DNA of 24,501 bases, from the IMG/VR virus record IMGVR_UViG_2700989161_000006; one strand, given 5' to 3'. Both the position numbers and the translations under genes were made by a program. This stretch comes from a virus. Its lineage: Duplodnaviria > Heunggongvirae > Uroviricota > Caudoviricetes. This document shows positions 8,759-12,971 of the stretch, one piece after another; the stretch's first letter is position 1, and each line of letters begins with the position of its first letter. The notes beneath the pieces were generated by a model. That model did no database searches. It saw only the letters and a list, made by a program, of their open reading frames with translations, and was not told where the DNA came from.

Positions 8759-9127
8759 TCAGACGGCTTTGATAGTCATATCATCTGAATCAAATATTCC
8801 TGATGTATCGATATCGGTAATTCTTATTCCTTCGCTACCATCCATTGGAGGCCATCCTTCCTGACCATTTCCATCATTCCAGTCGAACTCACACACAACA
8901 CCATATGCATTTAAGTCGCTTGAAATTGCTATAAGCAGAGCATGTTGCGCCAGCATGATTAATACAGCATTTAATACAGAGCCGTGTTTATTGAGTCGGT
9001 GTTCAGAGTCTGACCAGAAATTATTAATCTGGTGAAGTTTTTCCTCTGTCATTACGTCATGGTCGATTTCAATTTCTATTGATGCTTTCCAGTCGTAATC
9101 AATGATGTATTTTTTGATGTTTGACAT
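8759..9127 (-). CDS. Hypothetical AT-rich protein (122 aa) with one long hydrophobic segment
   Basis: ATG at 9127 with GAGGA upstream; hydrophobic stretch VLNAVLIMLAQHALLIAISS; acidic C-terminus; intrinsic terminator 20-45 nt upstream. Confidence 0.55.
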   Translation of the reverse strand: MSNIKKYIIDYDWKASIEIEIDHDVMTEEKLHQINNFWSDSEHRLNKHGSVLNAVLIMLAQHALLIAISSDLNAYGVVCEFDWNDGNGQEGWPPMDGSEGIRITDIDTSGIFDSDDMTIKAV

Positions 9128-9145
9128 CTATTCATATCCTCATAG

Positions 9146-9173
9146 ATAAAAAATCGCCCTCACACTGGAGGGC
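9146..9173 (-). terminator. Intrinsic terminator (minus strand) just upstream of gene 8759..9127
   Basis: Minus strand gcccuc-cagugu-gagggc followed by GAUUUUUUAU. Confidence 0.5.
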
Positions 9174-9235
9174 AAAGAAGATTTCCAATAATCAGAACAA
9201 GTCGGCTCCTGTTTAGTTACGAGCGACATTGCTCC

Positions 9236-9263
9236 GTGTATTCACTCGTTGGAATGAATACAC
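9236..9263. repeat. Perfect 9-bp inverted repeat with 10-nt spacer
   Basis: gtgtattca (9236-9244) / tgaatacac (9255-9263); no flanking U-run on either strand, so a protein-binding site or RNA structure rather than a clear terminator. Confidence 0.5.
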
Positions 9264-9280
9264 AGAGCAGTGTTTATTCT

Positions 9281-9318
9281 GTTTTTTATGGCAAAAATAA
9301 AAGCTGCCATTAGGCAGC
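9281..9318 (-). terminator. Intrinsic terminator (minus strand) downstream of small acidic ORF
   Basis: gctgcc-atta-ggcagc hairpin (9303-9318) followed on the minus strand by UUUUAUUUUU. Confidence 0.5.
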
Positions 9319-9390
9319 CTTGTTGTTCTGTTTACCAAGTTCTCTGGAAATCATTGCCGTCGTTCGTATTGTCCACACCATTGATTTTTA

Positions 9391-9477
9391 TCAATAGTCG
9401 TAGTCATACGGATAGTCCTGGTATTGTTCCATCACATCCTGAGGATGCTCTTCGAACTCTTCAAATTCTTCTTCCAT
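9391..9477 (-). CDS. Candidate micro-ORF (28 aa, highly acidic, Tyr-rich)
   Basis: ATG at 9477 preceded by GAGGTG 6 nt upstream; MEEEFEEFEEHPQDVMEQYQDYPYDYDY; bracketed by two minus-strand terminators. Could be non-coding. Confidence 0.25.
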   Translation of the reverse strand: MEEEFEEFEEHPQDVMEQYQDYPYDYDY

Positions 9478-9587
9478 ATATCACCTCAAATAAGTGGTTT
9501 GCTGCCTAATTTCATTTTCTGGCGACCAACACAAGTCACACCCATTTCACTGCGTGGCTTGCGGTAGTAAATTAGGTTTGTTCAGAC

Positions 9588-9610
9588 AATAAAAAACCCA
9601 CCGAAGTGGG
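9588..9610 (-). terminator. Intrinsic terminator (minus strand) after gene 9611..9949 (tL1-like position)
   Basis: cccac-uucg-guggg immediately followed by UUUUUUAUU on the minus strand, starting 1 nt after the stop codon. Confidence 0.6.
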
Positions 9611-9949
9611 CTATGACCATTTTTTATTTGGATTTCGTTGGTGAGCGTGATTAACAACTCTGTGCATTACATCCTCATATTTTTCATCTTCAATTTTTTC
9701 GACATCGCGAGGAAATGGTGTTGCTAATGCTTTGTCAACTTTGTCCATTGGGTCTTCATTAATCTTATATTCAGGGCCATCATCTATAGCATTAAATCCA
9801 GGTGTTACACCGTTTTTTAATGCATATGCTATCCTTTTTTCCCATCTCGCTATTCTCCTCCTGTCTCGAGATGTAAGACCTCTATCAGATACTTTTCTGT
9901 TTTGTCCGCGGTCAGGATTAACATAAATAGTCTTTTTCACCATAAGCAT
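9611..9949 (-). CDS. Hypothetical basic protein (112 aa) immediately downstream of N
   Basis: ORF track 9611..9955 starts at TTG; first ATG at 9949, 2 nt after N stop. No family recognised. Confidence 0.45.
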   Translation of the reverse strand: MLMVKKTIYVNPDRGQNRKVSDRGLTSRDRRRIARWEKRIAYALKNGVTPGFNAIDDGPEYKINEDPMDKVDKALATPFPRDVEKIEDEKYEDVMHRVVNHAHQRNPNKKWS

Positions 9950-9951
9950 AC

Positions 9952-10257
9952 TCAATAAGCACCGTACGGTAGTTTACTGTACAATTTTATTTTTTGGACT
10001 GCATGTATTTTGTTTCCTAATGGGTTTGAATCTTTGTAATAAATACTTCTATTTTTTCGAACGACTTCTTCTTTCTTCTTGCAGCAAAGGCATCCTAGCG
10101 ATGCTGCTTTGTCTGCTCTGACGCAACCAGAGAGCTTTAGCGCAATTTTTCGCGCCAGTGCTTCATTACTGCGTCGCTCGGCAATAAGTTCTGCTCTGCG
10201 AGCTTTGTAGCGGCTTTTTGCCGTACCTTTGGATTCTTTCCAGACAATGGTTACCAT
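9952..10257 (-). CDS. N: N-type transcription antiterminator with phi21-like arginine-rich motif
   Basis: ATG at 10257 with AAGGAG 6 nt upstream; GTAKSRYKARRAELIAERR near the N-terminus matches the phi21 N boxB-binding peptide as I recall it; sits between pL/nutL and the terminator cluster. Confidence 0.7.
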   Translation of the reverse strand: MVTIVWKESKGTAKSRYKARRAELIAERRSNEALARKIALKLSGCVRADKAASLGCLCCKKKEEVVRKNRSIYYKDSNPLGNKIHAVQKIKLYSKLPYGAY

Positions 10258-10367
10258 GATGGTCTCCTTTAAGTGGCTTTGGCGCATGACGCGTCGAGGT
10301 GCTTATCTTCTCGATCGCTGTCTTGCAGCTGCAATTCGCGCCATCCCCAAAACCACTCAAGTTCTGG

Positions 10368-10407
10368 TCTCAACGGTTAGGTTGAGAGTCCGTCGATGTT
10401 AAAGAGC
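10368..10407 (-). promoter_or_regulatory. nutL (boxA + boxB)
   Basis: Minus strand: boxA GCTCTTTAACA (10407->10397), 9-nt spacer, boxB hairpin ucucaac-CUAACC-guugaga (10387->10368); same boxA and same loop as nutR. Confidence 0.55.
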
Positions 10408-10449
10408 CTGCCAATCTGTTCCGTTTGGCTTCCAGCGTCCTGCTGATGG

Positions 10450-10485
10450 CTTAAATTTAAGACTTCTTAATTTATTGGTCAAGTG
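10450..10485 (-). promoter_or_regulatory. pL promoter with OL operator
   Basis: Minus strand -35 TTGACC (10481->10476), 17-bp spacer, -10 TAAATT (10458->10453); overlapping 18-bp operator-like palindrome AATTTAAGACTTCTTAAT (10453-10470) similar to the OR operators. Confidence 0.4.
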
Positions 10486-10545
10486 TATTTTTGAAGAAAA
10501 CTTAATTTTATGGGCGTGAATTTAGTTTGTCTTTGATTTTTAACG

Positions 10546-10571
10546 GGAAATAAAAAAGGGGCGAAAGCCCC
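10546..10571 (-). terminator. Intrinsic terminator after the repressor gene (minus strand)
   Basis: ggggc-uuuc-gcccc directly after the c2 stop, followed by UUUUUUAUUU. Confidence 0.55.
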
Positions 10572-11222
10572 TTAAGGAAGGTTTGCTAGCTTGGCATCAA
10601 CGACAACGCCAATGATTTTACAGTTCCCATTGATTTCAATCATTGGGTATTGTGGATTGAGTGGTTTCAGGAATTTTCTACCGGCATCAATAACTAACTT
10701 TTTGAATGTCGCCTCGTTTTCTCCTTCAAGTTTGGCGACTACCAACTTTCCATTACGTGGTTCGACTTCTGGGTCGACGAGAATAATCATCCCCTCAGGA
10801 ATACTCAGTCCTGCCGGGGCAGTCATTGAATCGCCTTTAACGTCGAGCCAAAAAGAGTCTTCAGAACAATCTACCGTTGTGTCGTACCAGTTATCTATTG
10901 CACGCCTATGATATGGCTCTACAGCTTCCATCCAACATCCTGCGCTTACCCAACTAATTAGAGGATACGAACCTCTTGGATCATGCCTGCTGTGATAGGC
11001 AATGTTTGAAAGACTATCCTCTCCTTTCAACAGGTAATCAGGGGAGCACTGCAAAGCCTTGGCTAAGGCCAATAGGTTTTCGCCATTGGGCTCAGTTTCA
11101 GATCGCTCCCATTGGGAAATAGCAACATTAGACACGCCAACCATCTTGCCAAGGGCAGCCTGCCTAATCTTGAGTTCTTTTCTGCGAGCGCGAATACGCT
11201 CACCCATCAGTTGTGTATTCAT
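10572..11222 (-). CDS. c2: Phage repressor, P22 C2-like (LexA/S24 peptidase fold)
   Basis: 216-aa ORF; MNTQLMGERIRARRKELKIRQAALGKMVGVSNVAISQWERSETEPNGENLLALAKALQCSPDYLL... matches my memory of P22 C2 nearly residue for residue; N-terminal HTH plus C-terminal autocleavage domain (Ser in GDSM, Lys in KL). Confidence 0.9.
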   Translation of the reverse strand: MNTQLMGERIRARRKELKIRQAALGKMVGVSNVAISQWERSETEPNGENLLALAKALQCSPDYLLKGEDSLSNIAYHSRHDPRGSYPLISWVSAGCWMEAVEPYHRRAIDNWYDTTVDCSEDSFWLDVKGDSMTAPAGLSIPEGMIILVDPEVEPRNGKLVVAKLEGENEATFKKLVIDAGRKFLKPLNPQYPMIEINGNCKIIGVVVDAKLANLP

Positions 11223-11290
11223 AGTTAAGACATCTTAAATAAACTTGACTTAAGATTCCTTTGGTGGATAATTTAAGTGTTCTTTAATTT
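11223..11290. promoter_or_regulatory. OR operator region with divergent PR/PRM
   Basis: 18-bp operator-like palindromes AGTTAAGACATCTTAAAT (11223-11240) and ATTTAAGTGTTCTTTAAT (11271-11288); PR -35 TTGACT (11245-11250), 16-17 bp spacer, -10 GATAAT/ATAATT (11267-11273) reading into cro. Confidence 0.6.
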
Positions 11291-11302
11291 CGGAGCGAGT
11301 CT

Positions 11303-11488
11303 ATGTACAAAAAAGATGTTATTGACCACTTCGGAACCCAGCGTGCTGTTGCTAAAGCACTAGGCATTAGCGATGCAGCAGTCTCTCAGTGGAAAGAAGT
11401 TATCCCAGAGAAAGACGCCTATCGATTGGAAATCGTTACAGCTGGCGCCCTGAAGTATCAAGAAAGTGCTTACCGCCAAGCGGCATAA
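11303..11488 (+). CDS. cro: Cro repressor (P22-like)
   Basis: 61-aa ORF transcribed from PR, GGAG RBS; MYKKDVIDHFGTQRAVAKALGISDAAVSQWKEVIPEKDAYRLEIVTAGALKYQESAYRQAA matches my memory of P22 Cro. Confidence 0.85.
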   Translation: MYKKDVIDHFGTQRAVAKALGISDAAVSQWKEVIPEKDAYRLEIVTAGALKYQESAYRQAA

Positions 11489-11495
11489 GCAAATT

Positions 11496-11535
11496 GCTCT
11501 TTAACAGTTCTGGCCTTTCACCTCTAACCGGGTGA
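11496..11535 (+). promoter_or_regulatory. nutR (boxA + boxB)
   Basis: boxA GCTCTTTAACA (11496-11506), 11-nt spacer, boxB hairpin ucaccu-CUAACC-ggguga (11518-11535). Confidence 0.55.
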
Positions 11536-11603
11536 GCAAACATCAGCGGCAAATCCATTGGGTGTGCCGCTATAACTCAATATCAATATAGGAAAATTAA
11601 CAA

Positions 11604-11900
11604 ATGGCACAAGCAAGCTACAGCAAGCCAACACAGCGAGAAATTGATCGCGCTGAAACTGATTTACTCATCAACCTGTCAACGCTTACCCAGCGCGGTC
11701 TGGCAAAGATGATTGGCTGTCATGAATCGAAGATAAGCAGAACGGACTGGAGATTTATTGCTTCGGTCTTGTGTGCTTTCGGAATGGCATCAGACATCAG
11801 TCCGATTAGCAGGGCTTTTAAGTATGCGCTTGATGAAATCACAAAGAAAAAATCCCCGGCCGCCACCGAGGATTTTAAGCAAATTGATATGCAATTCTGA
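11604..11900 (+). CDS. cII: CII-like transcriptional activator
   Basis: 98 aa; C-terminus ...[18 protein letters not shown] resembles lambda CII ...KKRPAATERSEQIQMEF (from memory); HTH in the middle; position after cro/nutR. Confidence 0.6.
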
Positions 11901-11932
11901 GGGAATTACTGGATCAATCCACAGGAGTAATT

Positions 11933-12079
11933 ATGACAAAACAACTCAGTCCTTACCAGGACAAAATTCACAAACACATACTACGTGATCGCTTCCTGTC
12001 CAGCTTCAAGCAGCCTGGTCGATTCCGGGCTGAGTTGGAAAAAGTGAAGCTGATGCAGAAGGAGAAAGGTCATGAGTAA
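11933..12079 (+). CDS. Hypothetical small protein (48 aa), not in ORF track
   Basis: ATG 11933 preceded by AGGAG; stop overlaps the start of the replication gene (ATGA); [48 protein letters not shown]. Confidence 0.3.
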
Positions 12080-12971
12080 CATATCTAATCTAGCCGAAGC
12101 CAGAGAGGCCAGAAGGCTACAACAACCGCATCAAAGCAGCGGTAAGGGGTATGCCTTGCTGCACCGTAAAATTATGGATGTGCCGTTTTACAAGGATGCA
12201 GAAGCAGCGCATCTGTGGGTTCACTTAATCCTCAAAGCAAAGCATACGCCTGAGTATGTAATGACTGACGCAGGAGAAATTCTGGTAGGCAGAGGGAAGC
12301 TACTTGGCGGTAGAAACTCTCTGGCGTTTGAAACAGGACTCAAACCAGATCGCGTTCAGTACCTGCTTAGAAAGTTCAAAAAACTCGGCATGATTGACTG
12401 GGTTTCACACGGTAAATTCTCAGTTTTCTCAGTAGAGAAATATGACGATTATCAGTCAAATTTTGTACCAGCAGATTACCAGCAAATTACCACCTCAAAG
12501 CCAGCAATACCAATGCCTGTAAGCAATGCTGTACCAGCAGATTACCAGCAAATTACCACAGATAAAGAATATAATAATATTATCTCTAATACTGACGTAT
12601 TAGAGAGTGCCACAGCAGACAAAAAGTCTGACAAGAAAAAACCTTCCGTCAGCTGTCAGGATGTTGTCGATGCTTACCACGAAATCCTTCCTGAAGCTCC
12701 AAGAATCCGCGCACTGAATGACAAGCGTAAAAACCAGATCCGAACGTTCTGGCGCAAAGCCGGAGTGATAACCCGCCAGCTTGACGGGCATGGGTTCACG
12801 ATGCAGGACTGGAGAAATTATTTGAGCTACGTTGGCGAAAATTGCCGATGGATGTTCGAAGAGCGCCCAAACCATCAACGCGGAACCGTCTGGCACAAAA
12901 AGGGATTTGATTTCCTGCTTAACGATAATACCTACCTGAAAGTTCGTGAGGGTGAACACGATGACCGATAA
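12072..12971 (+). CDS. Replication initiation protein (O-like, P22 gene 18-type) containing the origin iterons
   Basis: 299-aa ORF upstream of and overlapping the helicase gene; contains two 29-bp direct DNA repeats (tandem [10 protein letters not shown] in the protein) followed by an AT-rich stretch, like lambda ori inside O. Confidence 0.6.
12465..12559 (+). repeat. Putative replication origin iterons inside the O-like gene
   Basis: gtaccagcagattaccagcaaattaccac at 12465-12493 and again at 12531-12559, each holding two CCAGCA(G/A)ATTACC sub-repeats; AT-rich segment 12560-12600 follows. Confidence 0.5.

Follow-up and report, generated by a model that had tools for sequence, protein, structure and literature searches.

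Which phage supplied the immunity region at positions 9952–11535 of this stretch of DNA (the window, 24,501 nucleotides in all)? A sequence-only reading had described the region as a mosaic, in which repressor, Cro and operators of P22 type lie beside an N antiterminator and nut sites of the phage 21 (phi21) type. Positions 9000–12600 were read and their open reading frames listed; they form a standard lambdoid early-control region, and the repressor, Cro, operators, N, nutL and nutR of that reading were all present where it had placed them. The elements of the repressor system, in order of position, are as follows.

10447–10536, minus strand: PL start with OL1 (10455–10472), OL2 (10490–10507) and OL3 (10519–10536), transferred from the OL657228 annotation
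10556–10573, minus strand: intrinsic terminator after the repressor gene, also annotated in phage 21
10572–11222, minus strand: cI (P22 c2-like), LexA-type repressor of 216 aa with HTH_3 and Peptidase_S24 domains
11223–11288, plus strand: OR3 (11223–11240), OR2 (11248–11265) and OR1 (11271–11288), with PRM and PR
11303–11488, plus strand: cro, 61 aa (Pfam P22_Cro, 5.7e-28)

By its motifs the repressor is assigned to the Peptidase S24 LexA/lambda-cI type: an HTH domain (HTH_3, 6.4e-17), an S24 domain (Peptidase_S24, 1.2e-30), an Ala-Gly site (Ala94-Gly95) and a Ser/Lys dyad (Ser132 in GDSM, residues 130–133; Lys174/175 in KKLV, residues 174–177) are all present, and its structure matches were PDB 1ADR and 2R1J. 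The likeness to P22 on which the mosaic reading was built is genuine as far as it goes, with 202/216 aa shared between the repressor and P22 C2 (93.5%; only two differences in the first 68 residues), 60/61 aa in Cro (98.4%) and 76/80 positions in OR. It is not, however, the closest likeness. Phage 21 matches the window at 216/216 aa in cI, 61/61 aa in Cro and 80/80 positions in OR (nucleotide identity 99.8% for cI and 100% for cro), and all six 18-bp operators, OL1–3 and OR1–3, are those of phage 21; when c2, cro and operators were compared with P22 immC, phage 21 proved closer. Exact copies of the operator core TNAAGNNNNCTTNA number four, all in OL/OR, where 0.46 were expected (0/100 shuffles reached four). 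Promoter-like sequences lie at 10482–10454 on the minus strand, in the PL region, and at 11245–11272, where a PR-like TTGACT-16-GATAAT was found.

The identity to phage 21 extends well beyond these genes. Across window positions 10097–11810 the two sequences are collinear, with 6 mismatches in 1714 nt, a span that begins at N codon ~55, takes in nutL, OL, cI, OR, cro and nutR and ends at cII codon ~70. A sliding identity profile stayed at 98–100% from 10097 to ~11800 and dropped on both sides; blastn against phage 21 aligned 10035–11940 at 97.6%, and megablast of positions 9900–11600 against the phage collection returned phage 21, lambda imm21 and DE3 at 98.7% over query positions 136–1701. 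The OL-nutL segment and the nutR segment match phage 21 except at single bases. Phage 21, for which the genome reference is OL657228 (Feiss et al. 2022, PMC9119081), shares with the window the order N-nutL-PL/OL-cI-OR-cro-nutR-cII, as do lambda imm21 and DE3. Seen against this, the earlier contention that the repressor is of a different phage type than N falls away, since phage 21 itself has these same cI, Cro, OR and OL, and with it goes the mosaic immunity region. In all probability the interval represents the coliphage 21 immunity region (imm21), carried as one contiguous inherited block in a P22-like E. coli prophage at thrW next to proA. The arrangement is an ordinary one that was already known, and no new mosaic; imm21 has been familiar since the 1960s–80s.

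What, then, is to be made of P22? A recent recombinant, in which a P22 immunity module (c2, cro, operators) had been joined to a phage 21 N/nut module of different phage type, would explain the protein and operator likenesses given above, and would find something resembling a module boundary in the extent of the P22 homology, which covers boxA-L to boxA-R only (10393–11506 at 83.6% nucleotide identity; query positions 494–1604 at 83.7% in the phage collection search) and ends exactly at the boxA elements. In phage 21 (OL657228), though, the repressor, Cro, operators, N N-terminus and nut sites are identical to these and follow one another in the same order, and the P22 homology bounded by boxA belongs to phage 21 rather than to the window prophage. 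Moreover, nucleotide identity to P22 is only 81% in c2 (90% in cro), and c2 differs from that of P22 by 97 silent codons as against 14 amino-acid-changing ones, which bespeaks an old relationship and argues against any recent P22 donor. A recent recombinant of this kind is extremely improbable.

Rather, alignment indicates an old homologous segment, by now diverged, that is common to phage 21 and P22 and extends from the boxA of nutL to the boxA of nutR, and it is because of this shared segment that the repressor resembles P22 C2. P22 immC (c2, cro, OL/OR, gene 24, nutL/nutR) has the same architecture as the window, with homologous repressor, Cro, operators and boxA; OR1 is identical in the two, whereas OR2 and OR3 differ by 1–2 bases. 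Outside the segment, boxB and N are, as far as sequence comparison can tell, unrelated between phage 21 and P22: the P22 nutL boxB, GCGCTGACAAAGCGC, has nothing in common with the CUAACC hexaloop hairpins of the window, and P22 c1 is unrelated to the window's cII (21%). By their sequences, P22 and phage 21 would share an operator specificity. Botstein and Herskowitz are said to have related P22 immC to coliphage 21 immunity in 1974, and Franklin reportedly described, in 1985, how the N/nut determinants keep their form but diverge in sequence between lambda, 21 and P22. An explicit statement on the relationship of P22 and 21 immunity was not found in the literature searched. The P22 likeness is already recorded in the annotations of mEp235, DE3 and phage 21 ('similar to C2 [P22]', 'C2', 'similarity to P22 Cro'). 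Likeness to the best-remembered model phage is no proof of origin; it is the other candidate parent that decides.

The antitermination half of the region comprises five further elements.

9952–10257, minus strand: N antiterminator, 101 aa, its ATG 3′ of an AAGGAG Shine-Dalgarno sequence
10368–10387, minus strand: nutL boxB hairpin, 7-bp stem UCUCAAC/GUUGAGA, loop CUAACC
10397–10407, minus strand: nutL boxA GCTCTTTAACA, identical to the boxA-L annotated in OL657228
11496–11506, plus strand: nutR boxA GCTCTTTAACA, identical to the annotated phage 21 site
11518–11535, plus strand: nutR boxB hairpin, 6-bp stem UCACCU/GGGUGA, loop CUAACC

N is identical to its phage 21 counterpart over residues 1–55, a stretch that takes in the arginine-rich motif GTAKSRYKARRAELIAERR, and residues 8–29 agree at 22/22 positions with the phi21 N peptide of the boxB co-crystal (PDB 1NYB chain A), bearing out the phi21-type motif that had been read from the sequence. 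N also matched PHROG 271 (N-like, 3.9e-30), while its match to Pfam N_peptide was below the cut-off (18.1 vs 27.9 bits). Over its full length, identity is 74.5% to phage 21 N, 98% to mEp235 N and 21% to P22 gp24. The sequence-only reading was to be abandoned if N proved closest to P22 gp24, which it did not; this was nevertheless the wrong test, the decisive comparison being that of the repressor with phage 21. The lower figure for phage 21 reflects residues ~56–101, an alternative 'HK022/mEp235-type' tail of ~45 aa common to mEp235, mEpX1 and the HK022 remnant. The protein is not a full-length phage 21 N, in that its C-terminal part, the presumed RNA polymerase contact, differs; with the C-terminal ~45 aa being of non-phage-21 type, contacts with the polymerase could differ too. 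The same N is found in the plaque-forming phages mEp235, mEpX1 and Kapi1. A longer N reading frame from 10287 (111 aa, as annotated in mEpX1) was rejected, because the ATG at 10257 has the AAGGAG and corresponds to the start annotated in phage 21.

As had been noticed, nutL and nutR have the same boxA and the same CUAACC loop on different stems, which was upheld by the folds and by the recovery of two exact boxA copies only, one after each early promoter. A boxA followed by CTAACC was matched twice where 0.00 matches were expected; a third boxA-like match, at 18671 on the minus strand, has no boxB and was taken as chance. The nutL boxB is the phage 21 nutL stem-loop (L001 2834–2853), and the nutR boxB is that of phage 21 nutR (L001 3984–4001). 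Single-hairpin fold energies were no better than those of shuffled sequences (z = −1.2 and 0.0), and the support for the hairpins therefore lies in their identity to the characterised phage 21 sites. An Rfam scan of 9000–12500 at E ≤ 1 returned one chance snoRNA match and none at the nut sites. Among 140 matches in a boxB pattern scan of IMG/VR, known stems alone were recovered (29 nutL-type, having the same stem as the window's nutL, and 17 nutR-type); 93 matches had no stem of ≥5 bp beside CTAACC and look like chance, as does one further 5-bp stem, and no independent covariation was seen in that scan beyond the difference between nutL and nutR. N and both nut sites are, on these comparisons, of phi21 type and matched, the classical phage 21 pair; the co-adaptation proposed for them is borne out in so far as the N motif is the 1NYB peptide and the nut sites are the annotated phage 21 sites.

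A true junction within the interval does appear from alignment, at the 3′ end of N (~10035–10097), and it involves an apparently inserted nun cassette of HK022 type, whose parts are listed here.

9485–9582, minus strand: non-coding remnant of a phage-21-type N 3′ end, downstream of the nun cassette
9595–9612, minus strand: predicted intrinsic terminator directly 3′ of nun
9611–9943, minus strand: nun, HK022-type transcription arrest factor, 110 aa, just outside the interval and in the same PL operon
9976–10004, minus strand: nun promoter (−10 TACAGT, 9976–9981; −35, 9999–10004), transferred from the phage O276 annotation

The cassette consists of the alternative N C-terminus, the nun promoter, nun and the terminator, and positions 9594–10069 are 96.8% identical to the HK022 nun locus. 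Nun itself shares 109/110 residues with HK022 Nun (PDB 6ALG, 2.3e-71; also PDB 1HJI; PHROG 5632, Nun-like, 2.2e-69), and has the two marks of HK022 Nun, an arginine-rich motif and, at the C-terminus, the HxxxxHxH...KKWS segment. The nun promoter, which lies inside the alternative N 3′ coding sequence, has a conserved sequence in the window and HK022. In phage 21, N is followed directly by ral; in the window it is followed by this cassette and then by the remnant of the N 3′ end, which on alignment and translation reads ...LIYYRKPRSEMGVTCVGRQKMKLGSKPLI* (or ...IYYRKPRSEMGVTCVGRQKMKLGSKPLI*), in a stretch that is 95.7% identical to phage 21 L001 2291–2521 by blastn. The cassette has a diverged copy of the N 3′ end on either side. 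A dead phage-21-type copy is left downstream, and HK022 keeps a truncated alternative tail; on these grounds the cassette appears to have been inserted into the N 3′ end. Nun, the upstream promoter-bearing sequence and the terminator are common to HK022 and the window, but HK022 lacks an N gene: of N it keeps, upstream of nun, just a truncated piece of this alternative C-terminus, and put RNA takes the place of nut sites. In the window, by contrast, that C-terminus completes an intact N, and the nut sites are of phi21 type. The HK022 nun locus looks like a degraded derivative lacking the 5′ part of N. No explicit statement of nun as an inserted cassette was found in the literature searched.

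The same N-nun-imm21 module, including the alternative N C-terminus and nun, occurs in mEp235 (JQ182731, 99.5%) and vB_EcoP_Kapi1 (MT813197, 99.4%) over the whole of 9900–11600, with few point differences from the window (N S56C, N C101Y, Nun E66D); the paper on Kapi1 does not discuss the region. Although mEp235 belongs to the Hendrixvirinae, the packaging end of the window is P22-like.

On the right, the block ends in the next gene.

11604–11900, plus strand: cII (Pfam Phage_CII, 2.7e-33)

Residues 1–77 of cII are those of phage 21 cII, after which the two diverge (88.9% overall), the last ~20 aa in the window being of another type, as are the last ~45 aa of N; this C-terminus is HK022/HK97-type, and HK022 is 99.2% identical over 11598–12100. 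Alignment places the right edge of the imm21 block at ~11810, in the 3′ end of cII, and locates recombination joints in or near the interval at two places only, this one and the N 3′ end at ~10035–10097. On a wider scale the window is, by gene content, a mosaic P22-like prophage with an imm21 cassette. From its left end it carries proB, proA, thrW (tRNA-Thr, 2727–2802), int, early-left genes and imm21; to the right of imm21 follow replication genes of P22/HK620 type, nin, a Q21-like region with tRNA-Asn and tRNA-Thr, lysis genes and a P22-like terminase (85% identical to that of P22).

Prophages at thrW are often mosaic, and comparison of the whole window with complete E. coli genomes gave no full-length match (best coverage 66%). 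Together with the dead N 3′ fragment at 9485–9582, these points might suggest a decaying, non-functional remnant of a cryptic prophage. Against such decay, the ORFs of N, cI, cro, cII and nun are intact and essentially those of the plaque-forming phages 21, mEp235 and Kapi1, the operators, promoters and nut sites are unchanged, and beyond the block the window goes on with genes for replication, nin, Q, lysis and terminase. That the block is a decayed remnant is consequently very unlikely; the reading retained is that of an inherited imm21 block.

Sequence identity, collinearity and hairpin folds were observed in the window itself; how the block works is taken over from what is established for phage 21, P22, lambda and HK022, from which binding and antitermination would be expected as follows. 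The LexA-type repressor dimer would bind OL1–3 and OR1–3, shutting off PL and PR and keeping lysogeny, and RecA-stimulated self-cleavage at Ala94-Gly95 in the SOS response, through the S24 domain, would lead to prophage induction, while Cro would occupy the same operators in lytic growth. The transcripts from PL and PR would carry nutL and nutR, each with boxA and a boxB of CUAACC loop. Through its arginine-rich motif (residues ~8–29), N is predicted to bind the boxB hairpins and, with boxA and host Nus factors, to render RNA polymerase terminator-resistant, so that tR1 would be read through rightward, and the nun terminator and others leftward.

The correct label for the locus is imm21 (phage 21 cI, cro, N, nutL and nutR) and not a P22/phi21 hybrid, a correction of little import beyond annotation. 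Because repressor and operators are identical, cross-immunity with phage 21 and lambda imm21 is expected, and co-immunity is predicted with these and with DE3-type prophages; strains of BL21(DE3) type and lysogens of the window prophage may be predicted to exclude each other's phages. HK022 Nun excludes lambda by arrest at lambda nut sites (PMC5386594), and lysogens carrying the window's Nun would be predicted to do likewise.

In the phage collection search the same block was found in lambda imm21, DE3, mEp235, Kapi1 and HK629, and the N-nun-imm21 arrangement was present in at least 198/5426 complete E. coli genomes (counted at ≥80% of the query covered). The imm21 cassette is carried both by phage 21 (genus Jouyvirus) and by mEp235 (Hendrixvirinae). 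The sample of IMG/VR held 32 loci with phi21-type boxB. In about 16 of them cI and Cro were 98–100% identical in amino acids to the window's, and 12 of these also carry nun; at others with phi21-type nut, the repressor was only ~40% identical or absent. Mosaics of a phi21 N with a foreign repressor do exist, then, by this survey, and the window is not among them.

Nun is encoded in 30 phage records. Among the records examined, those possessing N (mEp235, mEpX1, PA28 and PDP110P1) all have a phi21-type nutL, and where the N gene is annotated, in mEp235, mEpX1 and PA28, it has the phi21-type N motif too; Kapi1, also a Nun record, is 99.4% identical to the window across N and nutL. Repressors differ among the Nun phages examined, HK022 and HK75 use put, and lambda boxB was found in none of the Nun-bearing records examined (of 30). 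This linkage of nun to phi21-type N/boxB or to HK022 put suggests that carriers need an antitermination system invisible to Nun. It is a tentative proposition, put at a little under an even chance, that the N-nun tandem records the origin and spread of nun, which would be tolerated only alongside Nun-invisible antitermination, phi21 N/nut and nun then forming a co-selected unit. Were this so, phi21 N/nut and nun would travel together across immunity types (imm21, mEpX1-type and Stx1a/PA28-type). The linkage of N and nun is a side observation of modest weight on a locus whose immunity genes are otherwise those of phage 21.

In the prophage, an HK022-type nun cassette lies within the 3′ end of N (window 9583-10069, the whole region being 9485-10095), made up and bordered as follows.

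9583-10069: cassette, including an alternative N C-terminus that contains the nun promoter
9611-9943: nun
9595-9612: terminator of the cassette
9485-9582: phage 21-type N 3′ remnant, a dead copy just downstream of the cassette

In HK022, just a truncated fragment of this alternative tail of N remains upstream of nun. Throughout the Nun-encoding phage records examined (mEp235, PDP110P1, mEpX1, PA28, HK022 and HK75), nun was accompanied either by phi21-type N and boxB or by HK022 put, and in none of these records was it found with a lambda-type boxB, which suggests co-selection of nun with the phi21 N/nut module. The linkage persisted across differing repressor types in these records, the nun-bearing mEpX1 having a VT1-Sakai-like CI and the nun-bearing PA28 a 933W-like Cro.

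Repressors adjoining phi21-type nut sites in IMG/VR loci (L019, L025, L052, L069, L095, L097 and others) were approximately 40% identical to the phage 21 repressor, cI21, or undetectable; true mosaics of phi21 N/nut with a foreign immunity therefore exist elsewhere. In the phage 21 GenBank record itself (OL657228, 3038-3754), the cI start is set at an internal Met, giving 190 aa, even though an intact 216-aa ORF of P22 C2 length is present; the three right operators are labelled ‘OR2, OR2, OR3’ in place of OR3, OR2, OR1. This looks like an annotation slip.

Resemblance to phage 21 recurs in other parts of the window:

8759-9127 (-): 122-aa DUF2528/PHROG 646 protein, homologue of the phage 21 gene annotated ‘ssDNA binding protein’ (lambda Ea10)
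17663-17737: tRNA-Asn
17743-17818: tRNA-Thr

The interval containing the DUF2528 gene (8659-9375) is 93.9% identical to phage 21. Within window 17066-17880, a region with 88% identity to the phage 21 Q/late-promoter segment is followed by the two tRNA genes. Phage 21 has the same tRNA pair behind its late terminator, so prophage and phage 21 have a further, distinct segment in common.

The window opens on host sequence:

1-2802: host proB and proA, then tRNA-Thr(CGT), with the integrase next
2727-2802: thrW, the tRNA-Thr(CGT) gene

The prophage sits at thrW, a site also used by P22, whose attP-int region has its match at window 2757-3283.

A third boxA-like sequence, GCTCTTTAAT, at 18671 (-), has no boxB hairpin after it and is probably a chance match. 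Within the O-like replication gene (12072-12971) lie two identical 30-bp direct repeats containing CAGCAGATTACCAGCAAATTACCAC (12464-12493 and 12530-12559, 66 bp apart), which are probably origin iterons.
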